NCBI RefSeq assembly: GCF_000020025.1
Contig: NC_010628.1
Coordinates: 2,310,001-2,342,000 of the forward strand
Direction of reading: 5' to 3'
Length of the DNA stretch: 32,000 nt
Source of the DNA: Nostoc punctiforme PCC 73102
GTDB taxonomy: Bacteria > Cyanobacteriota > Cyanobacteriia > Cyanobacteriales > Nostocaceae
In this document: positions 1,330 through 28,621 of the stretch, piece after piece
Numbering within the stretch: position 1 is the first letter of the stretch
Layout: each line of letters starts with the position of its first letter
The notes under the pieces: generated by a model
Told to the model about the DNA's origin: nothing
Databases searched by the model: none
The model's input: the letters and a program-made list of their open reading frames with translations, nothing else
Made by a program: the position numbers and the translations under genes

Positions 1330-1639
1330 TTTCCGCTACCTACATTTGTTGTGTAACATCACTTAAATAAAATTTTAAGAAACACAGCAATTATTAGGAT
1401 TAAAATTGATATTATCTGATTGGCTGAAAGTATTATTTCTATCTTTATACTGATATGAGTATCTATCAATAGTCTGAAAAATGATTTTATCTACAGTGGG
1501 TTTCAAAAAATATAGGACTCGTATTTGATTTTTAAACAAGACTCAGTATCGATCTATCCCTTCTTTCTTATTTCTTATTCCCTCTTCTCTGCCGATGCGA
1601 GTAAATATGGCTACGCCACGCTGCGCGAACAGAAATCAA

Positions 1640-3290
1640 ACCGGATTGCTATATCCCTCTTTCAAGAAACACTTGACGTAAAGCTTATATAGAAAGGGTT
1701 TGATAAAATGAAGCTTCCTCCTTATCTTGGGATTTGGGGACAAGTTGAAGACCAAAAGCTTGCGCTTTCTTCTGGAGATTTTTGAGGATCAAATCCTGGT
1801 ATTTTTGCTCATAGTATTCCATACCAGGATCAGAATATCGTCCAGCAGTTGTCCAAATTTGGTAGAACAAACGAGCCAGGTTGTGTGCAGTAGCAGTTAT
1901 TGCTTTGGGTGCGCCCAAGCGAGAACGTAACCGACGATAAAATGCACCTAGAGCAGAACGGCTGTGAGTCAGAGAAAAAGCCGTTATGCGAAAAGCATTT
2001 GCAGCACGATTGACAACAGTACGAGTTTGAGAGCTTTTGACCTTACCGCCAGTCACTTTTTGACCAGGACATAAACCCAACCAAGAGGTGAAGTGTTTAA
2101 CGCTGGGAAAACGTTTCGGGTTTAATCCCACCTCAGATAAAATAGTCTGAACAGTTAAAGCATCAAGACCATCAATCAGTGTAAAATCTACTCCTGCCAT
2201 CCGAAAAAGATATTTATGCAAATCAAAATCGGGGTGATTTGCAGTCGGTTTTTTTCTGCATTTTCTTCCTGTTGTTGGCGGTTCATCTAAAGTTTTAGGT
2301 TCATGCATATGCTAAACATTTTTCAATTTCAGCGTCAACAGCAATAATCTGTTGTTGATAAATCTCATACAGTGTTAATTCTTGCTGGAGGACAAATAAA
2401 TGTTCACGACGGTAATCACCAGTTAAAGATGCAGCAATATCTGCTGTGCTGCTTTTAATATGTGGGTCTTTGAGGGATGCTAAAACTTGTGGGTCTTGTT
2501 CACCAGCAACGATTGCTTTTATAATCTTCATTCCGGTCAAACCAGTCACATCGCTGATGACTTTGTGGAGATGTAAATTCATCTGGATGAGTGCCTTTTG
2601 CATCCGTTGTATATGGGCACTAGCACTCTTGATTAAGGTATCTCGTTGACGAATATAACTGCGTAGCACACAAACTTGGTCTTCTGGGCGAAAAGAACCA
2701 GACAGTAGTCCATATGTATGTAACTTTTGTAACCACTGGCAATCTAACACATCTGTTTTGCGCCCAGGGACTGTTTTAACGTGATGAGCATTGACTAATT
2801 TGACCTCAAAACCCTTGGCTTCTAATACCTGAAACACTGGAATCCAATAAACTCCTGTGGCTTCCATTGCCACGGTATTTATTCGGCATTCCTTTAACCA
2901 ATCGGCCATTGCAATTAAATCAGGGGTAAAACACCCAAATCGGCGAACATTTTTATCTGCCCTATCAGGAGGGACACAAACCCAATGTTCTCCACTACCA
3001 AGGTCTATTCCGGCTGCGTTCTGGTTAATTTCTTCTAAAGTGGATGAAGGTTTTACCACAGGTACAGGCTGGTTCTTCTCTTGATTTGCTGGCAATTTCA
3101 TTGCTGCAACCCTGTTGTAGTTATTATGGATAGTCCTGACGAAAGGGATGTACTCATAGATAATCTTTCAAACGGGATAGGAAACTTTATCCTTCACCAA
3201 TGTCATAGGCATAATGCCCCAGAACCATGCTCCTAATCAGGCTCAACACACTATTGTGGGTTCGGTTTTAACTGTCAGGATAATTATTAA
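1640..3290 (-). mobile_element. IS110-family insertion sequence (boundaries approximate)
   Basis: Contains a DEDD-type transposase N-terminal domain and a Transposase_20-type C-terminal domain on the minus strand, plus about 190 nt of non-coding leader (3102-3290). IS110 elements lack classical terminal inverted repeats, so the ends cannot be fixed from a single copy. Confidence 0.6.
1685..3101 (-). pseudogene. IS110-family transposase split by a frameshift into ORFs 2301-3101 (N-terminal DEDD domain) and 1685-2308 (C-terminal Transposase_20/HhH domain)
   Basis: The N-terminal ORF reads AGIDLGSGEHWVCV...VAMEATGVYWIPVFQ...NAHHVK, as in the IS110 DEDD domain. The C-terminal ORF reads DFDLHKYLFRMAGVDFTLIDGLDALTVQTILSEVG...LGLCPGQKVTGGKV, as in Transposase_20. 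The two frames overlap in GCATATGCATGA at 2301-2312. Intact family members are a single ORF. Confidence 0.75.
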
Positions 3291-3377
3291 TATACCTGTT
3301 GATTAGTCGCCTCAAAATAGTTTCTTTCATTCATAGCGGGTGGCAGTGCCGCCTGTGCGGTTGCTCCTAAGAAACAA

Positions 3378-3405
3378 GGCAGGAGGCAGGAGGCAGAAGG
3401 CAGAA
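3378..3405. repeat. STRR-like heptamer run (GGCAGGA/GGCAGAA x4)
   Basis: Direct reading gives ggcagga ggcagga ggcagaa ggcagaa. Confidence 0.8.
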
Positions 3406-3700
3406 GGGAAGAGGATTTGACTTGTTTCTTCCATCCATAACGGAAGCCAGCGCGTCCGTAAACAGCTTCTGTCACTTGTCGGAATAAGAAAGTAATAAAT
3501 AAACTAAACTATCCAGAAGCATAAGAGGGTTTAAATTGATTCATTGCACTAATTAAATGATTAAATCCCAGGAATAAATGGGAATTAGGAAAAATATCTC
3601 TGGGTCAGAACTTAAGTAAGTCGGCAGGAAAATTTACAAGTATGTAACGAAAATTTCACCAATTCAATCTGACTCTTTTTAGCACCCATCTTAACCCAAT

Positions 3701-3789
3701 ACTTGTCGGGTTTTGGGGAAAAGGGAAAGAGGAAAGGGGAAAGAAAAAACCTTTAACCTTTAACCTTTTCCCCAAACCCAATGCCGAGT
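3701..3789. repeat. Hairpin-forming short dispersed repeat (ACTTGTCGGGTTTTGGGGAAAAGG...CCTTTTCCCCAAACCCA)
   Basis: The arms TTGGGGAAAAGG and CCTTTTCCCCAA are complementary. A second copy of the left arm sits at 24362-24409. Confidence 0.75.
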
Positions 3790-3847
3790 TAAAAATGGTT
3801 AACCGAGCAGTATTGCATATTAACCTGTCGGGACTTAATTTAATAGA

Positions 3848-3874
3848 GCGATGCCTGCGGCGGGCTACGCCTAC
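3848..3874 (-). repeat. Short dispersed repeat family GCGTAGGCGTAGCCCGCC-N-AGGCATCGC (reverse copy)
   Basis: gcgatgcctgcggcgggctacgcctac is the reverse complement of the copies at 4674-4702 and 11552-11580. Confidence 0.8.
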
Positions 3875-4673
3875 AGTTCGCTTTCTGTGGTAAGTAAGTT
3901 GGTAGAAATAAACCAAATTATGTTACGAAACGTAAATAGTCTTAAAGTCCTACTAATAAACAATGACAAAGGACAAATGACAGTCCTTGCCAGTTAGCTT
4001 TAATTGCGCCAATCTACTTATCCCTCATTTGTCACTTTTACCAGAGAATAATCTAGGAGGCTTACAGCATAAGGCTTTTACCAAAAAAGCTTGATTTTGG
4101 TCATTCTATTAGAAAATCAACGCTCAAACGCTTGTTATATATAAAGTTGAAAATTTGCCTCAGATTTTTCTTTTCTCAGAGTGACAGAACAGGGTTAATA
4201 GCCATAACAAATGACAGCCTTTTCCTGTCGGAGACGCTACGCGAACGCCAGTTACCTTTAATTGCGCTGACCTACTTACTTGGAGTCATGGCCTTTAAGT
4301 TGATAATTCAGCGCTTGTGGGTTGATAATAAGGAGGCTTTGACAATCAAAGTTAAGTTCATGGGAGATAAGACAATTGCAATTTTTACCTTAATCGATAC
4401 CTTAAAATCTACTGTTTACGATCTAGATATCGCTATTTTAGAGGAAGCTTTACGCTGTAGCCGTGAAATAAATCAATCTCAAGTTGGGGCTTGGTTATTG
4501 AGCCAGTTTCAGCAACAGGATGATTATTAATTTTTATTAAATTACTTTTGTGTTGGTAGATACTGCTTACTGAGCAGTATTACTTAATGATAAAGATGAT
4601 TTACATAGTAAAACCGTACAACTTTCCCAAGCTGTACAGCCTGCTTAAATTGTTATAAATGAAATGGGACTTT

Positions 4674-4954: not shown

Positions 4955-7531
4955 ATGAGTCAGTCTTTTTCTCAAAACCAAGGAAGGCGAAATCGTCAAC
5001 AAAAGCTGTGGCCACAAAAATGGAGTTTAAAGACTAAAGCAATAGTTTGGGCACTAAGCATCAGTGTACTTCCTGTGTTTGCAATTGGGATAGCTACTTA
5101 CTTCTATGGGATTAATTTAAGTACTAAACAAATACCGCAAGTCAGACAGGAGAGGGCGAAAAGTTCAACAGAAACTGAAGCTCTACAGAGCCAACTGTCA
5201 CTCTTGTTAACTGGTATGGGGGTAACGGCAATCTTAGCAGGTGCGATCGCTGTTTTTGTGACTAATCGAGCTATTAGTCGAGTTAGCAACGTTGCTGCAA
5301 CTTCTAATGATATCAAAAATCGGCTACGTCCAGACAGTGAGTTTACTCAAACTTTCATTGCTAACGAAGATGAATTAGTGATGTTAGAGAGAAACATCAG
5401 CTTATTCACAGAACTGCTTTCAGTTTTGGTACAAGAGAAAGAAACCGAAGCTGATTATTCTCAACTATTAACGAAAATTACCCGTTGGGTTAGAGAATCA
5501 TTTAATCAAGAAGATGTTCTCAAAACCACCTCAGAAGAGATTCGTAAAGCTTTAAGCATTGACCGTGTAGCTATCTTCTGCTTCAATTCCCACTCTAATG
5601 GAACCTTTATAGTCGAATCAGTAGCACCTGGTTTACCGAAAATACTAGGGGTTACAGTCTCCGATCCTGGCTTCGAGGTAGGGTATATAGAAAAATACCG
5701 GAATGGTTGCACTCGTGCTATTGATGATATCTATCAAGCCGATCTCAGTGATGATGATATTGAGTTACTCCAGCAATTTGCTGTCAAATCTAATTTAGTA
5801 GCACCTATTTTCAAAGGCAAACAGCTATTCGGTTTATTGGTTGCACATCAGTGTTCTAGAGTTCGCTTTTGGCAGCAATCTGAGATTGATTTATTCGCTC
5901 AGATAGCTATGCAGGTGGAATTTGCCCTTGACTACGCCAAGCTTTTAGAAGAGGTAGACACCAAAGCAGATAAAGCTCAGATATTTATAGAAATTACCCG
6001 CAGTATTCGCGAATCGCTCAACGAAGAGGATGTCCTGAAAACCACTGTAGAAGAGGTTCGTAAAGTACTTAGTACAGATCGAGTAATGGTTTATACCTTT
6101 AATGCTAATTGGTCTGGAACTGTGATTGCCGAATCAGTGATTCCAGGTTATCCAAAAGTTTTGCGGTCTGAAATCCAAGACCCATGTTTCGGTCAGGGTT
6201 ATGTAGAAAAGTATCAGTCTGGTCGTGTTGCAACCACAAACAACATTTACCAAGCTGGTTTGGCTGATTGTCACATTAGCCTGCTCGAATCCTTTGGTGT
6301 GAAAGCAAATTTGGTTGCACCCATTCTCAAAGATGAACAGCTATTTGGCTTATTAATTGCCCATCAATGCTCCAGACCGCGTGATTGGCAACAGCCTGAA
6401 ATTGATTTATTTGCTCAGATAGCTATACAAATAGGATTTGCTCTTGACCATGCAAGGCTCCTGCAACGCATTGAGGCTGAAGGTATGCAAAGTCAGTTGC
6501 TGGCGGATACTATCGGCAGCATACGTCAATCGCTCAACGAAGAAGATGTCCTGAAAACCACTGTCGAAGAGGTTCGCAAAGTACTTAGTACAGATCGAGT
6601 GATGATTTATAGCTTTAATGCTAATTGGTCTGGAACTGTAATTGCCGAATCAGTTGTTCTCACGTATCCAAAAGTTTTGCGGGCTGAAATTGAAGATCCA
6701 TGTTTTGGTCAAGGCTATGTAAAAGAGTATCAGTCTGGTCGCGTTCTGGCAATAAATAACATTTACGAAGTCGGTTTAGCTGATTGTCACATTAACTTAC
6801 TCGAATCCTTTGGTGTGAAAGCAAATTTGGTAGCTCCCATTCTCAAGGATGAGCAGTTGTTTGGTTTATTAATTGCACATCAATGCTCCAGACCTCGTGA
6901 CTGGAAACAATCTGAGATCGATTTATTTGCCCAGATAGCAATGCAAGTAGGATTTGCTCTCGACCATGCAAGACTCCTGCAACGAATCGAGGCTGAAGCT
7001 ATGCGAAGTCAATTATTGGTGGATATTACGCGCAGCATTCACCAATCGCTCAAAGAAGAGGATGTCCTGAAAACCACTGTGGAAGAGGTTCGGAAGGCAT
7101 TGAGTACTGACCGAGTACTAGTTTATAGCTTTTATGCTAATTGGTTCGGAATTATCATTGCCGAATCAGTGGTTCCAGGTTATCCCAAAGTTTTGCGGTC
7201 TAAAATCCACGATTCCTGTTTTACTCAAGGCTATATAGAAAAGTACCAGTCTGGTCGTGTTGTCGCAATCAACAATATTTATGAGTCAGGTTTGGCTGAT
7301 TGTCACATTAAATTGCTCGAATCCTTTGCTGTGAAGGCAAATTTAGTCGCACCCATTATTAAAGATGATCAGTTATTTGGCTTGTTAATTGCACATCAGT
7401 GTTCTGGACCCCGTGATTGGCAACAGCCAGAGATTGATTTATTTACCCAAATAGCTATGCAAGTAGGATTTACTCTCGATTATGCTAGGCTCCTGCAAGC
7501 GTATCAAGCTACTGAAGCTAGCTCTAATTAA
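4955..7531 (+). CDS. Membrane-anchored multi-GAF photosensor: 2 TM helices plus linker, one degenerate GAF and three DXCF-type cyanobacteriochrome GAF domains; no recognisable output domain
   Basis: 858-aa ORF with two N-terminal hydrophobic helices (AIVWALSISVLPVFAIGIATYFYGI and LLLTGMGVTAILAGAIAVFV). GAF2-4 each carry D(P/S)CF, and exactly 28 residues later the canonical bilin Cys in LADCHI..LLESF.VKANLVAPI. That spacing is the same as I recall for the TePixJ-type DXCF CBCRs. The ORF stops about 15 aa after the last GAF. Confidence 0.85.
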   Translation: MSQSFSQNQGRRNRQQKLWPQKWSLKTKAIVWALSISVLPVFAIGIATYFYGINLSTKQIPQVRQERAKSSTETEALQSQLSLLLTGMGVTAILAGAIAVFVTNRAISRVSNVAATSNDIKNRLRPDSEFTQTFIANEDELVMLERNISLFTELLSVLVQEKETEADYSQLLTKITRWVRESFNQEDVLKTTSEEIRKALSIDRVAIFCFNSHSNGTFIVESVAPGLPKILGVTVSDPGFEVGYIEKYRNGCTRAIDDIYQADLSDDDIELLQQFAVKSNLVAPIFKGKQLFGLLVAHQCSRVRFWQQSEIDLFAQIAMQVEFALDYAKLLEEVDTKADKAQIFIEITRSIRESLNEEDVLKTTVEEVRKVLSTDRVMVYTFNANWSGTVIAESVIPGYPKVLRSEIQDPCFGQGYVEKYQSGRVATTNNIYQAGLADCHISLLESFGVKANLVAPILKDEQLFGLLIAHQCSRPRDWQQPEIDLFAQIAIQIGFALDHARLLQRIEAEGMQSQLLADTIGSIRQSLNEEDVLKTTVEEVRKVLSTDRVMIYSFNANWSGTVIAESVVLTYPKVLRAEIEDPCFGQGYVKEYQSGRVLAINNIYEVGLADCHINLLESFGVKANLVAPILKDEQLFGLLIAHQCSRPRDWKQSEIDLFAQIAMQVGFALDHARLLQRIEAEAMRSQLLVDITRSIHQSLKEEDVLKTTVEEVRKALSTDRVLVYSFYANWFGIIIAESVVPGYPKVLRSKIHDSCFTQGYIEKYQSGRVVAINNIYESGLADCHIKLLESFAVKANLVAPIIKDDQLFGLLIAHQCSGPRDWQQPEIDLFTQIAMQVGFTLDYARLLQAYQATEASSN
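5477..7531 (+). repeat. Four tandem 516-bp coding units (one GAF domain each); units 2-4 are highly similar at the DNA level
   Basis: The anchor string ATC(G/A)...GAAGA(G/A)GATGT recurs at 5497, 6013, 6529 and 7045, an exact 516-nt period. I estimate units 2-4 at about 80-90% identical by eye (not computed). Confidence 0.85.
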
Positions 7532-7589
7532 TAGTGAAAAGAAAGATTTTCTTCTTAAGGCAATTCATGTAGACGCATACTCTTAGGTC

Positions 7590-7658
7590 GAAGCAAGCTA
7601 CGCGGAGCGTATCGTACAGAAGCAGCTACTTTATAAGAAACGCTCCGCGTATAGTAGC
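7590..7658. repeat. Hairpin short dispersed repeat (GAAGCAAGCTACGCGGAGCGT.TCGTA.AGAAG), probably acting as a bidirectional terminator
   Basis: CTACGCGGAGCGT (7598-7610) pairs with ACGCTCCGCGTA (7640-7651). The same 33-mer family occurs at 26640-26672. It lies between two convergent genes. Confidence 0.7.
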
Positions 7659-8468
7659 CTATTTATGAATAGTCTCGCGCTCTTTATTAGCAGGTTCCTT
7701 CTCTTTGAATAAGTCAGCTGCTGTTAGAAGTAACTCCCTTAAGGTTTGTTTGATTTGGCGCTCTTTTCTGGCCAGAGATGTACCAGCTTCACCTAGTTTG
7801 TCTTCTAGCTGCGATCGCTTTTGTTCTACCTGTATAGCTACAGACTCTGCTTGGGGACGAGCCTTATCATACCAGTGTTTAGCCTCATCTAGATAATCTT
7901 GAACCTCCATAGAACGTCCGCCATAGCGTGCAGCCATATTAGCTCTGACAATAGCTAGCTGTGCTTGCAATTGCGCGTAACGTTTCTTTAATAACCCGAC
8001 TTCTTCACTATCTTTAATGGCATTGACAGCAGAATCAATTGCAGTTTTGGTACTAGCTGGTTTTTCTTTACCCGTCTCTTCAATCTCTGCCAAAATTACA
8101 TCAACCTCTTGCTGGAGTTGTTCTTCTTCACCATCTAGTTGAGCTTGGAGCCGCTTTATATCTGTCTGAGTTTTAGCAATAGATTCGTGTCTTTGAGTAT
8201 TAATTCCTTCTAGCGCTCCTTCAATAGAAGCTGTCACTTCATCTTTAAGTTCGCTACCTTTTTCTTGAAAGTTTTCAATGACAGCAGAAACAGCATCTCT
8301 AACCAGGCTACGAAGTTCACTAGAACCTTGTTTAAACTCAGAGCCTACTTGAGAAACTGCGGATTTAACAATTTCTCGAATCCGATCGGTTCTTAATTGT
8401 CCTGTTTCTTTAGCTTGTTGCAAGTCTGCTTGAATTTTTTCTTTGATATTGTTGTTAGGCATTTTCAA
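7659..8468 (-). CDS. Coiled-coil / amphipathic-helix protein (conserved hypothetical)
   Basis: 269-aa ORF that is Glu/Lys/Gln-rich with heptad-like periodicity and no hydrophobic segments. No competing ORF of comparable length. Confidence 0.6.
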   Translation of the reverse strand: MKMPNNNIKEKIQADLQQAKETGQLRTDRIREIVKSAVSQVGSEFKQGSSELRSLVRDAVSAVIENFQEKGSELKDEVTASIEGALEGINTQRHESIAKTQTDIKRLQAQLDGEEEQLQQEVDVILAEIEETGKEKPASTKTAIDSAVNAIKDSEEVGLLKKRYAQLQAQLAIVRANMAARYGGRSMEVQDYLDEAKHWYDKARPQAESVAIQVEQKRSQLEDKLGEAGTSLARKERQIKQTLRELLLTAADLFKEKEPANKERETIHK

Positions 8469-8786
8469 CTCTTAGAATTTAACTAATTGGGATAAAACTT
8501 TTTAGAAATGTTCTTACATCCACATTATGGCGTAGCCAGATCGGGCTTGGTACTTCCTTTAGATAGAAAATTCAAGTTCTAAAGAGGTGAACTGTCAATA
8601 CTGCTCGGTTAAGAATATTTGCACGAACTGAAGCCCAACAAACCCTACAAAAGATTGGGTTTAGTTCCTCAATCCAACCTCCAAATTTTTATTTGTAGAA
8701 AAAACCTACGCAGTATTGAGTGAGCTGTAACATAGCGCCAATTTGTGAGATGATTAATATTTGTTGGTAGTAATTGATAGTGAAAT

Positions 8787-9011
8787 ATGTGGCGAGTAAA
8801 TATTACTTGTTCAAGTGATGCCTGGAAGCTCTATGGTACTGATTTTAAAGCGATCGCCCAGAAGTATCAAGGGGAATTAATTGGTTCCAAAAAAATGCCA
8901 GATGGTACGCGCATCATGTCTTATAAAATTGAGGATGTTAGCGATGCAGAAGCCTTTCAAGAAGATTGTGCAAATTTTGCAGGGTTTTCAACTGACTTTG
9001 AATCCCTGTAG
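8787..9011 (+). CDS. Small hypothetical protein (74 aa)
   Basis: Clean ATG ORF in an otherwise empty intergenic space, with non-repetitive, protein-like composition. Confidence 0.45.
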   Translation: MWRVNITCSSDAWKLYGTDFKAIAQKYQGELIGSKKMPDGTRIMSYKIEDVSDAEAFQEDCANFAGFSTDFESL

Positions 9012-9056
9012 TAATTGATTCTAATACAACCAGTATTCAAAATCAGGAGACGTTGA

Positions 9057-9392
9057 TTGAAAAAACTACTCACATTAGTATTAGTAACATTTCTGCTATT
9101 GTTCAGCGCTTTTACTATGCCTGCTATGGCAGCAGATATAGTTAACGGTGAACAAATATTTAGTCTTCATTGTGCTGGTTGTCATATTAACGGCAGCAAC
9201 ATAGTTAGGCGGGGTAAAAATCTCAAAAAGCAAGCACTGAAAAAGTATGGTATGGATTCAATAGAGGCAGTTACATCTATAGTTACCAATGGTAAAAATA
9301 ATATGTCAGCCTACAAAGATCGCCTTACTGAACAGCAAATTACAGATGTTGCTGCTTACGTTCTCGAACAAGCTGAAAAAGACTGGCGTTAG
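9057..9392 (+). CDS. petJ: Cytochrome c6-like mono-haem c-type cytochrome (c6B/c6C-like group)
   Basis: Signal peptide ending AMA|ADI, haem motif CAGCH, and distal Met in NGKNNMSAY. The overall pattern ADxxxGxxIFxxxCAxCHxxGxNxxxxxKxLxKxAL...NGKxxMxA...VAAYVLxQA matches cytochrome c6. TTG start at 9057 with AGGAGA 8 nt upstream. Confidence 0.8.
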   Translation: MKKLLTLVLVTFLLLFSAFTMPAMAADIVNGEQIFSLHCAGCHINGSNIVRRGKNLKKQALKKYGMDSIEAVTSIVTNGKNNMSAYKDRLTEQQITDVAAYVLEQAEKDWR

Positions 9393-9400
9393 AAAGTTAC

Positions 9401-9446
9401 GAGTTAGGAGAGACGCGATTAATCGCGTCTTTACAAGAGTTAGGAG
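9401..9446. repeat. Perfect 20-nt palindrome AGACGCGATTAATCGCGTCT flanked by direct GAGTTAGGAG repeats
   Basis: The palindrome is at 9411-9430 and the direct decamers are at 9401-9410 and 9437-9446. The repeat starts 9 nt after the cytochrome stop, so it may act as a terminator, but no clear T-tract follows. Confidence 0.7.
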
Positions 9447-9573
9447 TTTTAACTCTAGTCGTCATAAATCATTCATAATAAAGTAGAAAAGTTAAAAAGC
9501 TGTAAAAAACCGCTTTTCAACTCACTAATTATTAAATCTGCTCACTTCCAACTTCTAACTCCAAAAATCGAAA

Positions 9574-10593
9574 ATGAACTTACCCACAGCGAGCCGTCTC
9601 CAATTCACTCCTGATTTGAACATCTGTCGCATATTAAATGGTATGTGGCAAGTCTCCGGCGCACACGGACGGATCAATCCCCAAGCTGCCATTGAGACTA
9701 TGTTCAAATATTTAGATGCAGGCTTTACCACTTGGGATTTAGCAGATCATTATGGCCCTGCTGAGGACTTTATTGGTGAGTTTCGCTGTCAACTAATTGA
9801 TACTCGTGGTAAAGATGCTTTATCTAAGGTGCAAGCGTTTACAAAATGGGTGCCTCGTCCAGGTAAAATGACGAAGAAATTGGTCGAGGAAAACATTGAT
9901 ATTTCCCTGAGAAGAATGAATGTGGAATCGTTAGATTTGATGCAATTCCACTGGTGGGAATATCAGGATAAAAATTACTTAGATGCCCTAAAATATATGG
10001 CAGAACTCCAGACTGAGGGTAAAATTAAGCATCTAGGTTTAACTAATTTTGACACGGAAAATTTGAAGCTGATTACTGAAGCAGGTATCAAAATTGTTTC
10101 TAATCAAGTGCAATTTTCCCTTATTGACCGCCGTCCCGAAGTTAATATGGCAGAATTTTGTCAGCAGCATGACATCAAGCTTTTTACTTACGGTACACTG
10201 TGCGGCAGCTTGTTATCAGAAAACTATTTGGGTAAACCGGAACCGCGAGGATCTGATCTGTCCACTGCTAGTTTGAAAAAATATAAAAATATGATTGATG
10301 CTTGGGGTGGTTGGCAATTATTTCAAGAATTGCTAGCTATTTTGAAGGAAATTGCTAATAAGCATAAAGTAAGTATCTCAAACGTAGCAGTGCGTTACAT
10401 TTTAGATCAGCCAACCGTGGGTGGTGTGATAGTTGGTGCCAGACTTGGTGTATCTGAACATATAGAAGATAACGCCAAAGTATTTAGTTTTAGTTTAGAT
10501 GCTGACGATCGCGATCGCATCAGTGCCGTATCTCGACAGTCACGAGATTTGTATCAGCTAATCGGCGATTGTGGCGACGAGTATCGGCGATAA
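9574..10593 (+). CDS. Aldo/keto reductase family oxidoreductase
   Basis: 339-aa ORF with the (alpha/beta)8 AKR pattern: FTTWDLADHYGPAE (catalytic Asp/Tyr region), ...IKHLGLTNF, ...NQVQFSLIDRRPE. Confidence 0.8.
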   Translation: MNLPTASRLQFTPDLNICRILNGMWQVSGAHGRINPQAAIETMFKYLDAGFTTWDLADHYGPAEDFIGEFRCQLIDTRGKDALSKVQAFTKWVPRPGKMTKKLVEENIDISLRRMNVESLDLMQFHWWEYQDKNYLDALKYMAELQTEGKIKHLGLTNFDTENLKLITEAGIKIVSNQVQFSLIDRRPEVNMAEFCQQHDIKLFTYGTLCGSLLSENYLGKPEPRGSDLSTASLKKYKNMIDAWGGWQLFQELLAILKEIANKHKVSISNVAVRYILDQPTVGGVIVGARLGVSEHIEDNAKVFSFSLDADDRDRISAVSRQSRDLYQLIGDCGDEYRR

Positions 10594-11767: not shown

Positions 11768-12136
11768 CTAGCCAATCGTGGCTTGGTTAGTGTCAACATC
11801 TGTAGTGCCATTCACAGAACGAGCTACAGAAATCATCTTATTAAGAATTTCTTGACTGGGAACTTTGCCTTTCAATACAACAGTGCTACCCGTTTGAGCA
11901 ACCCAAAGGGTATTAACATCATCAAGTTGGGGATCTTCATCAAATGCCAAAGCAACCCGCTTTGCCAACCCACTTTGGTCATATTCACCACTTAATCCCA
12001 AACGTTCTGGGGGTATGGATTGAGTAGCAGTAGGAGCAGCATTAGTACTAGGAGTTTGTGCTATTGACTGCGGAGTAGGATTTACTTCTGCATTTTGAGG
12101 TTTTTCCATTCCAAATAGTCTTTGTAACCAACCCAT
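11768..12136 (-). CDS. BON-domain protein
   Basis: 122-aa ORF with a low-complexity N-terminal half, then ...VAQTGSTVVLKGKVPSQEILNKMISVARSVNGTTDVD, which fits the BON pattern (V.L.G.V.s......a...a....GV..V.n). Confidence 0.65.
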   Translation of the reverse strand: MGWLQRLFGMEKPQNAEVNPTPQSIAQTPSTNAAPTATQSIPPERLGLSGEYDQSGLAKRVALAFDEDPQLDDVNTLWVAQTGSTVVLKGKVPSQEILNKMISVARSVNGTTDVDTNQATIG

Positions 12137-13790: not shown

Positions 13791-14459
13791 GTGGATATAG
13801 TATCAAAATTAACATCAAATCAAAATTTAGTTTCCCAAGGAATTAACAATATGAACTCACCTGAAGAATACATCAATAATAATTCATCAAATATAGAAAA
13901 ACAGAGTCCGAATGCAAACATAAATGAGTTGCAATTTAGTAGTAACAGCATGAGCGAAGGTAGAAACTTAGATAAAGTTAGAGAAATTCTTTTTGGCAAT
14001 CAAACACGGGATACAGAAAGAAAGTTTAGCCGTCTAGAAGAACGTCTAATTAAAGAATTGGGCAACGTGCGAGATGAAACAAGAAAACGTCTAGATGCTT
14101 TAGAAATTTATATTAAACAAGAAATTGATTCTTTAACGCAGCGCCTAAAAAATGAGCAATTAGATCGTGACTCTCAGGTAAAAGCAGTTGCTGAAGAAAG
14201 TAAAAGCATAATTATATCTTTAGAAAAAAAGATTACTCAATTTGATGAACAAGCGACTAATAGTCAACGAGAGTTGCGCGAGCAGATTCTCAACCAATCT
14301 AAAAGCTTACAAGATGAGATACAACAAAAATCTCAGGAAATAGTAGCTTTAATAGAACGGGAAGCTCAAGAACTTCGTAGAGACAAAACGGATCGTTCAA
14401 ATCTGGCTGCTATGTTTACAGAGTTAGCTAGCCGGCTGAATACAGAAAATAAGTCTTGA
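13791..14459 (+). CDS. Coiled-coil protein (first gene of the GTPase locus)
   Basis: 222-aa ORF with a GTG start (in-frame ATG alternative at 13851). N-terminal Asn/Ser-rich region, then LDKVREILFGNQTRDTERKFSRLEERL and about 140 aa of heptad-rich E/K/Q/L sequence. Confidence 0.6.
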   Translation: MDIVSKLTSNQNLVSQGINNMNSPEEYINNNSSNIEKQSPNANINELQFSSNSMSEGRNLDKVREILFGNQTRDTERKFSRLEERLIKELGNVRDETRKRLDALEIYIKQEIDSLTQRLKNEQLDRDSQVKAVAEESKSIIISLEKKITQFDEQATNSQRELREQILNQSKSLQDEIQQKSQEIVALIEREAQELRRDKTDRSNLAAMFTELASRLNTENKS

Positions 14460-14688
14460 GCTAAAGAATTGTTTGAAAATTTATCACTATTAATTTTGGC
14501 ACTCTTATATTCTCTATACCCCTATTAAAAAGGAGAACTTAAAATAATTTAAAAGTTTTAAGACAAGAATACTTTCAAAATATCCTCTACTCTAAGGTTA
14601 AAAGATTTTTACCTATCGGCGCATCTCTCCTGCTTACAACAGAATGCTTGCTACTTGATGATAAATTGTGAATTGGGGAATTTTGGTA

Positions 14689-16473
14689 ATGAGTGACTAT
14701 TCAAATAATCCAATACCGAAAGCATCCTCTGAAGGTTTGAACAGCAACAACCAAACCTTCGAATTTAATGATGAACTAACTATACTCCGTAGTTTGCTTC
14801 TGGATATTGAGCCGACTAAACTCAAAACACTTTATGAGCGATTAGAAAACCCTCAAATTTTACCAGAAGATATTAGCAAGATGCTTCCAGAAGCTGTAAT
14901 CTTGCGGTCAAAACAAGATAAACAACTTGGCGAAGTAATGGTATCAACTGTGGAAAATGCCATAGAAGTTTCTGTTAAACAAGACCACAATGTGCTTGCA
15001 GATGCATTATTTCCAGTTATTGGGCCAGCTACTCGCAAGGCGATTTCCACGGCTCTTGAGGAAATGATGCAATCGATGAATCAAACTCTGGAACATAGTT
15101 TGTCTCCACAGAGCTTTAAATGGAGACTAGAAGCGCAACGCACAGGAAAATCATTTGCGGAAATTGTGCTGTTACGGACGCTAGTTTATCGAGTAGAACA
15201 AATATTTTTGATTCATAAAAAATCGGGATTATTGCTGCAACATTTAGTAACAACGCAGGTAACAGTTCAAGATCCAGATTTAGTAGCTGCGATGTTGACA
15301 GCTATCCAAGATTTTGTCAAAGATTCCTTTAGGGTACAAAAAGTAGATGGACTAAAAAGTTTACGCTTTGGAGAAGTAATGATTTGGATTGAAGAGGGGC
15401 CACAAGCTTTAGTAGCAGCGATGATTCGAGGGAATCCTCCCCAAGAATTAAGGTTAGTTTTGCAAGAAGCGATAGAAAAAATTCACCTGAAGCTAGGTAG
15501 AGAAATTCAAAATTTTACAGGGGAAACAGCAGCATTTCAGTCCAGCCTGCCTTATTTAGAAGCTTGTCTGGTAGTTCAGTATAAATCTGCTGCTAAAAAA
15601 AATTATACCTATGCCTGGGCTTTCTTGGGTGCGATCGCGATCGCTTGTGGGACTTGGGGCTTTTTTACTATTAGAGAACAACTCCGTTGGCAAGCATATC
15701 TCCAAAAACTCAACTCTCTGCCAGGAATTGTTGTGATTAACACCAAGCAAGCTTTTGGCAAATATTTTATTTCGGGAATGCGCGATCCCTTAGCAGTAGA
15801 TCCTAATACACTAATACAACAAACAAATCTTAATCCCAAAATAGTAATTAGCCAGTGGCAACCTTATCTGTCTTTGGAGCCACAATTTGCTGCCAAAAGA
15901 GTTGAAAAGTTGTTGCATCCTCCCCAAACTGTATCATTAATGGTTGATAACAACGGTATTCTTAATGTAACTGGTTATGCACCCCGTAAATGGATTTTAG
16001 AAGCACGGAAATTATGGACATTTATTCCTGGTATTACCCAATTTCAAGACCAAAAACTCGTAGAAATAGAACTTAGCGAGTTACGGTTATCTAAAATAAA
16101 GATAGAAAAAGAAATATTTTTTTTTACAGAAGGAACAACTGAGTTGATGCCTGGTGAAATTGACAAATTGCCTAATTTGTTTTTATCAATCCGCAAATGT
16201 TTGAATATTGCCAAGTATTTAGGTAAAAATGTGCAAATTCAAATAATTGGACATACTAATAGTACTGGAACAGAACGAAGAAATAGACCACTCAGTCAAG
16301 CGCGCGCTAATAAAATTCTATCTTATTTAATATCCCAAGGAATCAAGATAAACCAATTTCAAGCACTAACTGTAAGTTCTAGCCTAACTTCCCAGCCAGA
16401 ATTAACATCAGAATCTAAAGAATTTAATCGGAGAGTCTCTTTCAAAGTATTAATAAATAATATCTCTAAATAA
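14689..16473 (+). CDS. Single-pass membrane protein with a cytoplasmic Roadblock/LC7-like segment and a C-terminal OmpA/MotB-type peptidoglycan-binding domain
   Basis: ATG at 14689 (the track's GTG at 14668 is an alternative). TM helix YTYAWAFLGAIAIACGTWGFFTI. OmpA-like motifs VQIQIIGHTNSTGTERRNRPLSQARANKILSYLISQGI and FNRRVSFKV. The cytoplasmic part contains VYRVEQIFLIHKKSGLLLQHL...DPDLVAAMLTAIQDFVKDSF...FGEVMIWIEEGPQALVAAMIRG. Confidence 0.8.
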   Translation: MSDYSNNPIPKASSEGLNSNNQTFEFNDELTILRSLLLDIEPTKLKTLYERLENPQILPEDISKMLPEAVILRSKQDKQLGEVMVSTVENAIEVSVKQDHNVLADALFPVIGPATRKAISTALEEMMQSMNQTLEHSLSPQSFKWRLEAQRTGKSFAEIVLLRTLVYRVEQIFLIHKKSGLLLQHLVTTQVTVQDPDLVAAMLTAIQDFVKDSFRVQKVDGLKSLRFGEVMIWIEEGPQALVAAMIRGNPPQELRLVLQEAIEKIHLKLGREIQNFTGETAAFQSSLPYLEACLVVQYKSAAKKNYTYAWAFLGAIAIACGTWGFFTIREQLRWQAYLQKLNSLPGIVVINTKQAFGKYFISGMRDPLAVDPNTLIQQTNLNPKIVISQWQPYLSLEPQFAAKRVEKLLHPPQTVSLMVDNNGILNVTGYAPRKWILEARKLWTFIPGITQFQDQKLVEIELSELRLSKIKIEKEIFFFTEGTTELMPGEIDKLPNLFLSIRKCLNIAKYLGKNVQIQIIGHTNSTGTERRNRPLSQARANKILSYLISQGIKINQFQALTVSSSLTSQPELTSESKEFNRRVSFKVLINNISK

Positions 16474-16487
16474 AATTAGATCAATTT

Positions 16488-16988
16488 ATGGTTATCCAGA
16501 AGAAAATTTGTATGATAGGTGCATTTGCTACAGGTAAAACTAGTTTAGTAGCAATGTTTGTCCACAGCATTTTTTCTGAGAAATATCATACTACTGTGGG
16601 TGTAAAAATTGATAAAAAAGCTATAGAGATTCAAGATAAAAAAATAAACCTTATCCTTTGGGATATCTATGGAGAAGATGAGTTTCAAGAATTACAAATG
16701 TCTTATTTACGAGGTTCTGCTGGTTATTTATTAGTTGTAGATGGTACCAGACATAATACTTTACAAAAAGCTTTTGACTTACAAATAAAAATAGAAGATG
16801 CTATTGGTCAAGTTCCCTTTATTTTAGTCATAAATAAATTGGATATAACGGATGAATGGGAAATTGAATCTGCTGAGATAGATGATGTTACACAAAATGG
16901 TTGGACTGTGATTAAAACAAGTGCCAAACATAGTATTGGTGTAGAAGAAGCTTTTCAAACTCTCGCTAAAAAAATATTGGATTGCTAA
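16488..16988 (+). CDS. Ras/Rab-like small GTPase
   Basis: All five G motifs are present in order: G1 GAFATGKTS, G2 YHTTVGV, G3 WDIYGED, G4 NKLD, G5 TSAK followed by GVEEAF. It starts 14 nt after the upstream stop, and its TAA abuts the next ATG. Confidence 0.85.
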   Translation: MVIQKKICMIGAFATGKTSLVAMFVHSIFSEKYHTTVGVKIDKKAIEIQDKKINLILWDIYGEDEFQELQMSYLRGSAGYLLVVDGTRHNTLQKAFDLQIKIEDAIGQVPFILVINKLDITDEWEIESAEIDDVTQNGWTVIKTSAKHSIGVEEAFQTLAKKILDC

Positions 16989-17390
16989 ATGTTGGATGTC
17001 CCTGTTTTTGTAATTGCCTATATTCTAAATTTGTTAACAGCAGAGTCTTCTCTTGGCTATCTGTTGGTTAATAAAGATGGTAGCCTCTTGACTTGGGGTG
17101 GGAAATTGGCAGCTTATGGAATTACAAACCTCCGTAAAGGCAAAAATGCAAAAGAGCAAGTTGTCTTTCTAGAAGGGTTACTACCATTAGATGATACTTC
17201 CATATTTTTACCATTCATCCAAACAGAGTGTGGCAGTTGTGTAGATGTTCATATATTACCGACGAAAGAAGCAGATTGGGTATTGCTGTTAGATAGTAGC
17301 TGTGATAGAGATTACCTCTTTCCTATTCAGCAAAAAGCAAATGATTTCAGATTATTATACGAAAAATTAAATAGAAAGTTAAATTACTAA
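16989..17390 (+). CDS. Small protein paralogous to the N-terminal sensor domain of the adjacent histidine kinase
   Basis: 133-aa ORF whose ATG directly follows the GTPase stop. By-eye alignment to residues ~1-140 of the kinase: SLGYLLVNKDGSLLTWGG vs ALNILVLEKIDAGLFKIIG, VVFLEGLL vs FSFLNNFL, DWVLLLDSS..QQKANDFRLLYEKL vs KFLLIEALE..LQKAREYKLIYQQL. Confidence 0.6.
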   Translation: MLDVPVFVIAYILNLLTAESSLGYLLVNKDGSLLTWGGKLAAYGITNLRKGKNAKEQVVFLEGLLPLDDTSIFLPFIQTECGSCVDVHILPTKEADWVLLLDSSCDRDYLFPIQQKANDFRLLYEKLNRKLNY

Positions 17391-17429
17391 CCTAAAGTCA
17401 AAATTAATTGATTGTATCAGGTTTAACTC

Positions 17430-18554
17430 ATGAATACATCGATCGCGAATGATATGCTCACGGCTTTGAACATTCTGGTGTTAGAAAAAATTGATGCAGG
17501 TTTATTTAAAATTATTGGTAATATACCTGATTGGTTAAATCAATTTTCTTGTAAAAATTTAGCATCAGGAATGAATATATCAATACCACATGAAGAGTTT
17601 TCTTTTTTAAATAATTTTTTAGTTGATGCCGAAAAATTTTGGACTAACAATAATACTAAAAAACTCAGTTCAGGTTTATGGACTGAAATAGATGCAACTG
17701 GACAAGAATATCAATTTAAAGCTTATGCCATTTGTGTAGATAATAGGAAATTTTTATTGATTGAGGCGTTGGAAGATTCTTATCAAGAACAGCAGTATAT
17801 TCTCCAAAAAGCTAGAGAATATAAATTGATTTATCAGCAATTACTTAAGGATAATCAAAAAAAAGATGTTCTAGTTCATTGTCTTATCCATGATATAGCA
17901 GTGGAATTGAGTGCTATTAACTGCTGTTTTGCACTACTAGAATTTGAAAACTTAACGCCTAAAGGAAAAGAATATTTAGAAACTGGTATAAAGCAATGTC
18001 TAAAACAAGAGATGCTGATTAAAGATATTTTAGACGCTTTTTCTACTGAAGCGATGTTAACAGAAAATTCTCATATCGATATTGAAAAAGCACCTAATAT
18101 CTTAAGTTCTATACAAGAGGTAATTGAGTTTTCAAAACTGAACTTTGCCCTTAATAATATCCAATTACAGCTTGCTAGCAATATTGATATGACAACAGAC
18201 TGGAAAGTTATGGGAGAGAAATCTCGTTTAGATAGAGTGATTTCTAATTTAGTAGAAAATGCTTATAGATATAGTAACCCAGATTCTATTGTGACTATTG
18301 GTCTACAGTTGGATGGGCAATATGTTTTAGTTACTATAGATGATTGTGGTTTGGGTGTACCGCCAGAAATGGAAAAGAATTTATTTCAAAAGTTTTCTCA
18401 AGGCAAAGGTAAATCAGGGAGAGTTGGTTTAGGTCTTTATTTTTGTAGAATCACACTTGAACGCTGGGGAGGTATGATTGGTTATTTGCCTCGTATTGAA
18501 GGTGGTTCTAGATTTTGGTTCCGCTTGCCAAGACTACCATCAGTGATGAGTTAA
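17430..18554 (+). CDS. Soluble sensor histidine kinase (unknown N-terminal domain + HisKA + HATPase_c)
   Basis: H box LIHDIAVELSAI, N box ISNLVENAYRYS, G1 DDCGLGVP, F box LFQKFSQG, G2 GLGLYFC. No hydrophobic helices and no receiver domain. Confidence 0.85.
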   Translation: MNTSIANDMLTALNILVLEKIDAGLFKIIGNIPDWLNQFSCKNLASGMNISIPHEEFSFLNNFLVDAEKFWTNNNTKKLSSGLWTEIDATGQEYQFKAYAICVDNRKFLLIEALEDSYQEQQYILQKAREYKLIYQQLLKDNQKKDVLVHCLIHDIAVELSAINCCFALLEFENLTPKGKEYLETGIKQCLKQEMLIKDILDAFSTEAMLTENSHIDIEKAPNILSSIQEVIEFSKLNFALNNIQLQLASNIDMTTDWKVMGEKSRLDRVISNLVENAYRYSNPDSIVTIGLQLDGQYVLVTIDDCGLGVPPEMEKNLFQKFSQGKGKSGRVGLGLYFCRITLERWGGMIGYLPRIEGGSRFWFRLPRLPSVMS

Positions 18555-19409: not shown

Positions 19410-20822
19410 TCAGACGACGCTGGGCGATCGCTGCGGCTTGAGTTGCGGAAAAACCCAGTTAATCAAACTTGCAACACTTGCACTATTAATATTTGTAGCT
19501 GTCAAATGGCGGCTCATTTCTACTAATCGCAGCTGTTGTTTTGTGTATTCCAGTTCATTAGCATCAGCAACTTGTTGTTGCTGACGGAAATTTTGCCCCA
19601 AATTTCGCAAAATATTTTGATTACCTTGCAATGTAGGAATGCAGAACATTTTACCAATCTGACCGGGATTACCTAAAATTTTTGCTTGGTTAGAGTTAAA
19701 AGTTAAACCAGGTACGCTTAGACAAGCTTCTGGAGAAAACCTGGCATCGCTAAAATCTGCTTGATTGAGAATGCTTGCACCTTGTAAATTAACTGATTGA
19801 TTAAACTCCACTTCTCGAAATATGAGAGCTTGCTCAAAAGTCGCATCTGTTAAAAAGAGAAACTGATTAAAATTTGCTTTAGTAAACTGGGCTTGATTGG
19901 CAAAGCGGACATCAGAAAAATCAGCATTTTCTTGCCATTTCACACTACTGAATTTAGCCAATTGCTTAAAAGTTGCTTGGTTGAAGTTAGCAATCTTTTC
20001 AAAGATACTCCCGTGAAAATCAGCGAATTCCTGAAATTGGGTTTGTTTAAAATTAGCTTTTTCAAAAAAAATACTGCCCTGAAAATTGCTTGGTTGCTTA
20101 AATTTAGTACCACTAAAGCTGACGGGACGACCAAATCGGGTTTCAGCCCAATTCGTGGATTGCAGAAAAGTTGCACCTTGGGCATCCACAGACTGAAGAA
20201 AGAATGTATTAGAGAACTTCATTTCGCCATTGAAGCGAGTTTGCACGAGTTTCAAGACACCACGAAAGACGGCAATTTCACTGGATGAGGTTGGCTCTCT
20301 TCCCAAAAGCGATCGACAATCTTTGGAGTTGGCTAGTGATTCTAGACAAATAAAGCGCAAACGCTCTAGTTCTTCTTTTTCAGTAGCTGTGAAAATCGGA
20401 GCAATAGCTTGGGCGTATAAGGAGGTTCTTAAACCCAAATCGCTGCCCACAAAATCCCCTAAAATCAGGGCATAGCTGAGGTCTAAACCCAGAGGTTTTG
20501 TACCTAGCTCTTTTCGCAGTAGTTGGTAAAAAGCATCACGAAAGCTAGCGTTTTCGAGGCGCAAATCAATCACCATCTTCTGCAAATCTACCGTAAAATT
20601 TCCTTCGCGGAGTGTTGGTGTGCGTAGACGTTCTTGTAATAATTCCAGAGTTAGGGGTGTACGTTCTGGTTGCGTCTGTGCTGCTGAAGTAGGTAGGGGG
20701 AGGAGGAGAAGTAAAACGCAAAGGAACGCAAAGGGAAGCGCAGAGGTACGCAGAGAAAGCTTTCTGGGTATCTTTGCGTTTAACCTCTGGGTGCATCTAT
20801 GTTTAAAAAATAAATTATGCAA
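19410..20822 (-). CDS. Pentapeptide-repeat protein with N-terminal signal peptide
   Basis: Long run of A(D/N)LXX-type pentapeptides (ANFKQTQFQEFADFHGSIFEKIANFNQATFKQLAKFSSVKWQENADFSDVRFANQAQFTKANF...). Hydrophobic leader LPFAFLCVLLLLLPLPTSAA. Confidence 0.8.
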   Translation of the reverse strand: MHNLFFKHRCTQRLNAKIPRKLSLRTSALPFAFLCVLLLLLPLPTSAAQTQPERTPLTLELLQERLRTPTLREGNFTVDLQKMVIDLRLENASFRDAFYQLLRKELGTKPLGLDLSYALILGDFVGSDLGLRTSLYAQAIAPIFTATEKEELERLRFICLESLANSKDCRSLLGREPTSSSEIAVFRGVLKLVQTRFNGEMKFSNTFFLQSVDAQGATFLQSTNWAETRFGRPVSFSGTKFKQPSNFQGSIFFEKANFKQTQFQEFADFHGSIFEKIANFNQATFKQLAKFSSVKWQENADFSDVRFANQAQFTKANFNQFLFLTDATFEQALIFREVEFNQSVNLQGASILNQADFSDARFSPEACLSVPGLTFNSNQAKILGNPGQIGKMFCIPTLQGNQNILRNLGQNFRQQQQVADANELEYTKQQLRLVEMSRHLTATNINSASVASLINWVFPQLKPQRSPSVV

Positions 20823-27946: not shown

Positions 27947-28621
27947 TCAATCATGCAATGTGTAGCCGACACCACTCACAGTTTGAATGAGACACTTTTC
28001 GTTATTGGCTTCAAGTTTCAGACGCAGGTAGCGTATATGAAGTTCGATGATGTTGGCATCGCTTATGAAGTCGTAAGCCCAAACTTCTTGTAAAATGCGA
28101 TCGCAGGTAATTAGCTGTCGTGGATGGGCCAGTAAATATTCGAGTAAATCAAATTCCTTAGCAGTTAACTCAATTAACCTTTGATCTCGGTACACTTGGC
28201 GCGTGCGACGATTTAAACTCAGGTCTTCAAATTCTAAAACATCTGCGCTGTCTACTTGCCAACTTCTTCGCAGGTGAGCGCCAACTCTGGTTAATAATTC
28301 ATCAACACTGAAGGGCTTAACGAGGTAATCATCAGCACCAGCGTCTAAGCCTACAATGCGATCGCTTACTTCATCTTTGACGGTTAATAATATTATCGGC
28401 AATTTATCACTAATATTTCGCAGGTGGCGGCAAATTTCTGACCCCGATAAGCCAGGCAACACCCAGTCTAAAATTACTAAATCTAGATGTAACTCACGCG
28501 CTGCGGTGAGTGCAGTTAATCCATCGTAGGCAATACTGACTTGATAGCCTTCATAATTTAATTCTAATTCGACAAATCGCGCCAGTTTGACTTCATCTTC
28601 AACCAGTAAGATGTGCGTCAT
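27947..28621 (-). CDS. OmpR/PhoB-family response regulator
   Basis: Receiver domain (ILLVEDE, LVILDW acceptor Asp, KPF) and winged-helix domain (LTAKEFDLLEYLLAHPRQ...IQTVSGVGYTL). Confidence 0.9.
   Translation of the reverse strand: MTHILLVEDEVKLARFVELELNYEGYQVSIAYDGLTALTAARELHLDLVILDWVLPGLSGSEICRHLRNISDKLPIILLTVKDEVSDRIVGLDAGADDYLVKPFSVDELLTRVGAHLRRSWQVDSADVLEFEDLSLNRRTRQVYRDQRLIELTAKEFDLLEYLLAHPRQLITCDRILQEVWAYDFISDANIIELHIRYLRLKLEANNEKCLIQTVSGVGYTLHD

Follow-up and report, generated by a model that had tools for sequence, protein, structure and literature searches.

The closest described relatives of the system discussed here are the Group 1 Rup proteins, delineated by Wuichet and Søgaard-Andersen (2014, Genome Biol Evol; PMC4316618) as Ras-like GTPases with eukaryote-type G motifs and without a G3 glutamine. 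In that computational study, whose data set covered Cyanobacteria including Nostoc punctiforme, the partners found in the genomic neighborhood were a coiled-coil cytoplasmic protein, a protein composed of a domain of unknown function, a transmembrane helix, and an OmpA domain (DUF-TM-OmpA), and an output protein. The last is a histidine kinase or a GGDEF/EAL protein with an invariant glutamine in its N-terminal region, and the authors proposed it to be the residue that a GTPase-activating protein (GAP) provides in trans. None of 121 Rup GTPases was coupled to an MglB homologue, and the published view is that Group 1 proteins have no Roadblock (MglB-type) partners. The same study reported monophyly by taxon and noted that no Group 1 member was characterized and that one N. 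punctiforme member was transcribed (PMC4316618). Among prokaryotic proteins, those of Group 1 Rup also show the greatest similarity to Rab, Ras, Rho, and Ran of eukaryotes. Here, we examined a 32,000-nucleotide (nt) stretch of the N. punctiforme PCC 73102 genome (contig NC_010628.1, positions 2,310,001 to 2,342,000; hereafter the window), in which five genes at window positions 13791-18554 had been singled out from the sequence alone as a GTPase switch module and as a gene combination not recognized as a characterized system. Judged by its sequence, this Nostoc locus belongs to the Group 1 Rup system of small-GTPase signaling, with every defining feature present, and the combination had in fact been published in 2014, by computer analysis, as the Group 1 Rup neighborhood (PMC4316618). 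What is new here is the predicted longin/Roadblock fold of the second protein, the finding that the fourth is a stand-alone copy of a domain elsewhere fused to output modules, and a gene order that is kept from Nostocales to Acidobacteriota.

The five open reading frames (ORFs) all lie on the plus strand: O1 (13791-14459; 222 amino acids [aa]), O2 (14668-16473; 601 aa), O3 (16488-16988; 166 aa), O4 (16989-17390; 133 aa), and O5 (17430-18554; 374 aa), separated in that order by 208, 14, 0, and 39 nt. The ORF list returned the coordinates from which the sequence-only reading had started, and its description of five codirectional genes with gaps of 14, 0, and 39 nt between the last four was borne out by that list and by direct reading of the O3/O4 junction (gat tgc TAA ATG ttg), where the stop codon abuts the next start. 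All four components described for Group 1 Rup are present, with O5, a histidine kinase, as the output protein; O1 corresponds to the conserved first gene of the neighborhood, the "coiled-coil cytoplasmic protein" of PMC4316618. Absent from the published description are the 133-aa stand-alone N-terminal domain (O4), the fusions of that domain to class III cyclase or PAS, and a motif shared by O1 and O2. The published account also left the cytoplasmic domain of the O2 counterpart as one of unknown function, whereas we predict for it a longin/Roadblock fold.

Pfam, PDB, and alignment place O3 among the Ras/Rab-like small GTPases, as one of the Group 1 Rup type. It matches the Ras family (PF00071) with an E value of 5e-33, and its closest solved relatives are Rab23 (the best PDB match, 1.7e-23), Rab10, Rab7, and Rab21. 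The five G motifs previously read in the 166-aa protein are all there: G1 (GAFATGKT), G2, G4 (NKLD), and G5 (SAK) are canonical, and G3 (WDIYGE) takes the form WDxxGE, with glutamate for glutamine. Across 76 orthologues, the G1 sequence GAFATGKT, the G2 threonine, NKxD, and SAK are invariant. The position of Ras Q61 is occupied by glutamate in O3, and the residue that follows the G3 glycine is glutamate in 67 of 75 aligned GTPases and glutamine in none of the 75; the position of Ras G12 is occupied by phenylalanine. O3 is thus a Rup protein by definition, being small (<240 aa), eukaryote-like in G1 to G5, and devoid of a G3 glutamine. It is not of the MglA type, given that the best matches are Ras and Rab proteins, that G3 reads DxxG as in Rup, and that Rup is a clade of its own in PMC4316618. 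O3 carries no lipidation motif. Its C-terminal cysteine was considered as a lipidation site and rejected, as it is not conserved among the orthologues, and for that reason we assign no lipid anchor to O3.

To place the locus among its relatives, we used a sample of 80 loci from Nostocales, other cyanobacteria, Sericytochromatia, and Acidobacteriota (Blastocatellia/Pyrinomonadaceae), counting in each case only those loci with room for the neighbor in question. Of 74 loci, 71 have O1 upstream of O2, and the GTPase gene lies directly downstream of O2 in 73 of 75. In 70 of 72, the gene that follows the GTPase opens with an O4-type domain (58 loci) or with a domain of the type found at the N terminus of O5 (O5N type; 12 loci). 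In 32 of 58 loci there is no gap (0 nt) between the stop codon of the GTPase gene and the start codon that follows, and in nearly all others, those of Acidobacteriota included, the two lie within ca. 8 nt, which indicates conserved translational coupling of the two genes. When Nostocales loci were checked by hand, O3 and O4 were also seen to share one reading frame (501 nt apart); in the window, the stop and start codons meet at 16986-16991. The neighborhood is therefore strongly syntenic from Nostocales to Acidobacteriota, which answers the question, posed by the sequence-only reading, of whether it is conserved across cyanobacteria and other phyla. The flanking genes, by comparison, are kept only in the nearest relative, and on these comparative grounds the five genes are a functional unit, probably an operon. 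The system looks vertically inherited and near-universal in Nostocales. O2 itself shares 95% identity with a Nostoc sp. C110 protein, and the family defined by its residues 1-310, for which there is no Pfam model, comprises 4493 cluster representatives (50% identity) at E<=1e-3, of which 1562 remain at E<=1e-30.

Pfam matches, homologues, and an AlphaFold2 (AF2) model describe O2 as a bitopic inner membrane protein composed, in order, of a cytoplasmic helical region, a longin/Roadblock-like module, a transmembrane helix, periplasmic BON-like modules, and an OmpA-like domain. Its true start is probably Met8 (ATG, 14689) rather than the GTG at 14668, because the homologues are 594-595 aa long and Met8 is nearly invariant in the family alignment. 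The full-length AF2 model, built from a 102-sequence alignment, has a mean predicted local distance difference test (pLDDT) score of 84.4. Residues 1-48 fall below a pLDDT of 50 and are probably disordered; residues 36-171 form a helical region, residues 172-281 a compact beta-beta-alpha-beta-beta-beta-alpha module followed by a further helix (288-298), residues 314-350 a long membrane helix, residues 354-466 two small alpha/beta modules, and residues 484-598 the OmpA-like domain. The single transmembrane helix and C-terminal OmpA/MotB-type domain of the earlier description are thus both in place: the transmembrane helix proper spans residues ca. 314-338 (15607-15681) within helix 314-350, with the hydropathy maximum at residue 317, and the OmpA-like domain, of MotB/Pal type (16117-16461; motif GHTN...R546), is recognized by Pfam at an E value of 5e-11 (43.2 bits against a gathering cutoff of 27.2) and matches the structures of Pal, OmpA, MotB, and TagL. 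We infer an N-in orientation from the fact that the OmpA domain is periplasmic. The alpha/beta modules between helix and OmpA domain (15727-16065) were called BON-like from AF2 secondary structure, and Pfam BON matches occur in other members of the family. Against the PDB, the full-length model retrieved only OmpA-type structures and Rv0899 of Mycobacterium tuberculosis (2l26), the latter over 271 aligned columns with a poor root mean square deviation of 19.4, and it left the cytoplasmic part uninformed. Rv0899 combines BON and OmpA-like domains.

Because the full-length search was swamped by OmpA-domain matches, residues 158-300 were modeled alone (pLDDT, 82; predicted template-modeling score, 0.75) and searched with Foldseek against the PDB. 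This model has the topology H-E-E-H-E-E-E-H-H (helices, H; strands, E), and all 50 of its top 50 matches belong to the longin/Roadblock superfamily, with E values from 5.9e-5 to 4.5e-3. The sigma subunits of AP-1/2/3 (5.9e-5) and Mon1-Ccz1 (2.5e-4) are among them, as are Sec22b, which has the highest template-modeling (TM) score (0.63), and MglB (1.3e-3; PDB matches to MglB/MglC, 3t12, 3t1r, 1j3w, and 7ct3). The other matches include zeta-COP, the TRAPP subunits Bet5/Trs23, FLCN-FNIP, the C-terminal domains of RagA/C, Ego3/LAMTOR, MglC, and CPLANE. Longin proteins rank above MglB, so that the top matches favor a longin over a Roadblock identity. We therefore predict, from modeled structure, that the cytoplasmic alpha/beta segment of O2 (residues 163-300, 15154-15567; alpha-beta-beta-alpha-beta-beta-beta-alpha-alpha) adopts a longin/Roadblock-type fold. 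The segment in which the sequence-only reading had seen a Roadblock/LC7 (MglB-type) domain coincides with the beta-beta-alpha-beta-beta-beta part of the model, and that proposal survives as a matter of fold, by AF2 and the 50 best Foldseek matches, and not of sequence signature. The module contains a set of near-invariant polar residues (E177, Q178, H183, R254, and G255; window ca. 15196-15432), which could be catalytic or interface residues.

The two proteins that follow the GTPase carry what may be GTPase-facing domains. O4 is a stand-alone "Rup-associated N-terminal domain" whose residues Q114-Q115 are invariant in 62 of 62 O4-type sequences. Residues 1-145 of O5 (17430-17864) constitute a second type of Rup-associated N-domain, in which Q126 is invariant (58/58) and R129 nearly so. 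Both types occupy the same genomic slot, and in both the invariant glutamine lies in a C-terminal helix-like segment. A search of a large database with O4 returned 173 homologues; all of those among the matches listed are 107-175 aa long, most of them 123-139 aa, and unannotated, and the ones with a named source come from Nostocales. Outside Nostocales (in other cyanobacteria, Sericytochromatia, and Acidobacteriota), the O4-type domain instead forms the N terminus of 290- to 347-aa proteins with a C-terminal class III nucleotidyl cyclase or PAS domain (e.g., L044 9212-10225, L050 2121-3143, L073 9343-10386, and L054 9275-10153, with class III adenylate/guanylate cyclase or PAS), and it is also found at the N terminus of a histidine kinase. 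Since the same domain is N-terminal in cyclase, PAS, and kinase proteins elsewhere, Nostocales O4 is, by this comparison, a conserved output-less remnant of a domain that otherwise carries outputs. It is missing from some Nostocales loci (L007, L008, L023, L025, L028, and L029). The O5N-type domain is fused in other loci to histidine kinases, to hybrid kinases with receiver and phosphotransfer domains (HK-REC-Hpt), and, in Acaryochloris, to GGDEF-EAL; a large homology search with this domain gave four fragments only. We hypothesize that the O4 and O5N types are homologous: BLASTP aligns O4 with O5N at an E value of 0.005 over 44 aa, the next-best matches in a hidden Markov model (HMM) cross-search are almost all O5-type proteins at the equivalent position, and the two consensus sequences are collinear by eye. 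Neither shows similarity to the longin module of O2. The 133-aa protein had been termed a sensor domain, for which we find no support, as it matches no known family; the accompanying idea that it and the kinase N-domain face the GTPase is consistent with their position and fusion partners. One contig, L051 (Coleofasciculaceae), carries two tandem modules, O2-GTPase-(O4-type cyclase) and O1-O2-GTPase-(O5-type kinase), at 1603-4672 and 6193-10579. O4-type and O5N-type outputs may thus belong to separable modules.

The remainder of O5 (17865-18554) is a soluble histidine kinase core with a HATPase_c domain (Pfam E value, 4e-21). The H-box pair H154-D155 is invariant in 49 of 49 sequences, and the N, G1, F, and G2 boxes are conserved among the O5 kinases; HisKA is below the Pfam threshold in O5 itself (12.5 bits) and significant in related kinases. 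On these motifs the kinase looks catalytically competent. The complete boxes noted beforehand are thus real, as is the lack of a transmembrane helix, there being no convincing membrane segment in O5. Nor does 13791-18554 contain a REC domain, as the sequence-only reading had said; within a kinase protein, a receiver is found only in some acidobacterial versions (hybrid HK-REC-Hpt). The sole REC domain in the window belongs to an orphan OmpR-type regulator at 27947-28621 on the minus strand, 9.4 kb away, which we considered as a partner of O5 and set aside as a weak lead only, as it is not consistently linked to the kinase across loci. A homologue, 71% identical, is found in Nostoc sp. C117 (L003 13199-13885), only 2.2 kb downstream of the kinase, and in L041 the OmpR-type regulator follows another ORF, of 479 aa.

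O1 is probably a cytoplasmic coiled-coil protein, a character deduced from its composition and from weak apolipoprotein-like matches. It has no transmembrane segment and belongs to no Pfam family, its only matches being weak ones to apolipoprotein-like proteins or to the tail of ZorA. Residues 55-87 (13953-14051) contain a conserved motif, with the consensus nLdKVRDILFG.Q...RLEERL, identified by profile comparison. Its counterpart near the O2 N terminus (residues ca. 32-60; 14761-14847) has the family consensus L..LR.LL.GPE...L..L..RLD.P, also given as L.eLR.LLlGpEq..L..L..RL. The similarity of these two openings had been pointed out earlier from the single sequences; pairwise BLASTP lends it no support, and it stands at the profile level, where hhalign aligns the O1-family and O2 N-terminal profiles over 28-29 columns with modest E values of 3.3e-3 and 4.5e-4. 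That a short conserved motif is present in both proteins suggests one common binding partner for O1 and O2.

How might these parts work together? The best explanation of the whole, which we regard with modest confidence as probable, combines an envelope-anchored O2, a Rup GTPase, effector/GAP modules in O4 and O5N, and a kinase output. O2 would sit in the inner membrane with its BON/OmpA part in the periplasm, in contact with the wall. Its cytoplasmic longin/Roadblock platform, probably dimeric, would recruit the Rup GTPase to the envelope and set its nucleotide state, acting either like one of the guanine nucleotide exchange factors (GEFs), as do Mon1-Ccz1, TRAPP, and Ragulator, or like a GAP, as does MglB; the GEF and GAP roles of the partners could be assigned either way. 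O1, through the motif common to it and the O2 N terminus, would modulate the O2-GTPase step. GTP-bound Rup would then bind O4 and O5 at their N-terminal domains, which would serve as its effector and GAP modules and possibly supply the missing glutamine in trans, as Wuichet and Søgaard-Andersen proposed (PMC4316618), and this binding would switch the O5 kinase, leading to phosphorylation of a response regulator encoded elsewhere. Nostocales O4, its cyclase output lost, would probably serve as an output-less competitor or as a GAP that tunes the switch. We propose this wiring because the GTPase lacks a catalytic glutamine of its own, because glutamine-bearing domains are encoded immediately after it, and because those domains carry interchangeable outputs.

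Several points weigh against this account. We infer every protein-protein contact in it from gene linkage, and the signal may run from envelope to cytoplasm or in reverse. A literature search found no experimental (biochemical or genetic) study of any Group 1 Rup member. The longin/Roadblock assignment comes from a predicted structure whose Foldseek scores are moderate (TM, 0.4-0.63), and Pfam gave no Robl_LC7 (PF03259) match at E<=1 in O2 or in 72 family members, one of which has a noise-level match to Fuz_longin_1 (E, 0.078). The homology between O4 and O5N is weakly supported (hhalign E values, 0.018-0.028; HMM cross-matches, 0.4-10), and neither has a match in Pfam member scans or PDB profile searches. 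No cognate response regulator was identified for O5. Contact with the wall is itself in some doubt. In the GHTD...LSxxRA motif of OmpA and Pal, the conserved aspartate and arginine contact diaminopimelate. The arginine (R546) is conserved in 99 of 102 O2-family members; the peptidoglycan-binding aspartate, present in 77 of the 102, is asparagine here (N531, 16258-16260) and likewise in the alignment's four other rows of Nostocales type. Peptidoglycan binding is therefore not to be assumed and may be altered in the Nostocales lineage. The description of O2 as peptidoglycan anchored accordingly holds to the extent that an OmpA domain is present, as a statement at the level of the domain.

The same parts can be wired in reverse: O5N and O4 would detect a cue in the cytoplasm and load or unload the GTPase, and O2 would be the effector, the GTP-bound GTPase changing through its BON/OmpA part some property of the envelope, such as peptidoglycan tethering, outer membrane contacts, or the positioning of a machine. 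Longin/Roadblock domains also act as passive GTPase-binding platforms or effectors (the Foldseek matches include small subunits of AP and COPI as well as C-terminal domains of Rag), no other component is as conserved or as widespread as O2, and the PAS domains on output proteins in several loci are possible sensors. We nonetheless think this arrangement unlikely, since the proteins after the GTPase carry classical output enzymes (cyclase, GGDEF-EAL, and kinase), which fits a downstream role, and since an invariant glutamine in the N-domains, next to a GTPase without its own, speaks for a GAP or effector role. Still less credible, in our judgment, is the switch originally envisaged from the sequence, in which the O2 Roadblock domain is an MglB-like GAP for an MglA-type GTPase that controls motility, hormogonia, or polarity. 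The system does occur in gliding filamentous cyanobacteria, MglB and MglC are among the structural matches, and, as in the MglA-MglB pair of Myxococcus and Thermus, genomic linkage joins a small GTPase of the Ras superfamily to a partner whose alpha/beta fold is of the Roadblock type. However, O3 is Rup/Ras-like (DxxG followed by glutamate) and not MglA-like; no Rup protein was found coupled to MglB (PMC4316618); the O2 module, unlike MglB, is set in a 601-aa membrane protein, lacks the Robl_LC7 signature, has two C-terminal helices as in longins, and resembles longin proteins above MglB; and a separate glutamine-bearing domain is here the better GAP candidate. Moreover, the outputs are second-messenger enzymes and kinases rather than motility proteins, and the system is also found in Acidobacteriota. 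Because the GTPase is not of the MglA type and Robl_LC7 is absent from the 72 family members, the MglA/MglB analogy is a likeness of fold and logic, not of family.

It could also be asked whether the locus is a Zorya/MotAB-like antiphage system, in which a peptidoglycan-anchored complex would sense perturbation of the envelope by phage and trigger a GTPase-gated response. PADLOC returned weak matches between O2 and ZorB (E, 1e-9) and between O1 and the ZorA tail (E, 1e-3), the locus is AT rich relative to its flanks, and those flanks are variable. Yet the ZorB matches are confined to the generic OmpA/MotB domain, O1 has no MotA-like transmembrane domain and matches only the tail, and no nuclease or other killing effector is encoded in the locus. 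The vertical-looking, near-universal distribution in Nostocales and the monophyly by taxon (PMC4316618) likewise run counter to a defense role, which we consider highly improbable. Most of the locus has a G+C content of 30-35%, compared with 40-48% in the flanks, and the 15- to 16-kb block is at ca. 40%, so that the AT richness claimed for the locus applies to most of it and is moderate.

Two further comparisons are informative. The actinobacterial conservon (CvnA-D / MfpB-E), proposed to be a membrane-associated G-protein-like signaling complex (PMC4316618; PMC13015309), likewise brings a histidine kinase together with a Roadblock-fold protein and a small GTPase in one operon. In the conservon, however, the GTPase is of the MglA family, the kinase is membrane borne, and the Roadblock protein is small and soluble, whereas here it is the kinase that is soluble and the membrane component that contains the Roadblock-like module. 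The best structural matches of O2 lie with eukaryotic assemblies (Mon1-Ccz1, TRAPP, Ragulator/LAMTOR, FLCN-FNIP, AP sigma, and zeta-COP), just as O3 is most Rab-like. At membranes, these longin/Roadblock proteins serve Rab, Rag, or Arf GTPases as platforms, GEFs, or GAPs. Unlike them, O2 is bacterial, has its own transmembrane helix, and would be tied to the cell wall, and no sequence homology to them was detected.

If the O2 module is real, it would provide a concrete regulator-GTPase pair for a very widespread system, the O2 family alone having thousands of members, and it would carry over to bacterial envelope signaling the principle of a GTPase platform known from eukaryotic membrane traffic. 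A bolder proposal, which we put forward tentatively as possible rather than probable, is that Group 1 Rup is hardwired across phyla to a membrane-anchored longin/Roadblock GEF or GAP and that O4/O5N represents a new type of GAP that supplies its glutamine in trans. Were this true, the pairing of a GTPase with a longin/Roadblock membrane module, as used in eukaryotic trafficking and mTOR signaling, would have preexisted in bacteria as an envelope-to-second-messenger switch, possibly sharing ancestry with the eukaryotic Rab-longin-GEF pairing. The modular N-domains, with their cyclase, PAS, GGDEF-EAL, and kinase outputs, suggest a general adaptor that couples GTPase state to a second messenger or phosphorelay. 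For annotation, "OmpA family protein / hypothetical protein" can be replaced by a system-level assignment.

A simple and uninformative scan for promoters and terminators showed no enrichment in the locus and no terminator in the O2-O5 interval. The genes around the locus in the window are unrelated housekeeping or mobile genes. A 470-aa pentapeptide-repeat protein (19410-20822, minus strand), two genes from the kinase, is reminiscent of MfpA of the mycobacterial mfp conservon; we rejected it as an MfpA analogue, since it is kept beside the system only in the closest relative (L004), and its proximity is probably coincidental. Just upstream of ilvH, a 122-aa protein (11768-12136, minus strand) gives a near-threshold BON match (26.5 bits; cutoff, 27) and appears unrelated to the Rup system, although O2 has BON-like modules too. 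An 858-aa protein (4955-7531, plus strand) contains four GAF domains and no recognized output domain. Finally, an IS110-family transposase at 1685-3101 (minus strand) is divided between two overlapping ORFs (DEDD_Tnp_IS110, 266 aa; Transposase_20, 207 aa) and may be frameshifted or decayed.

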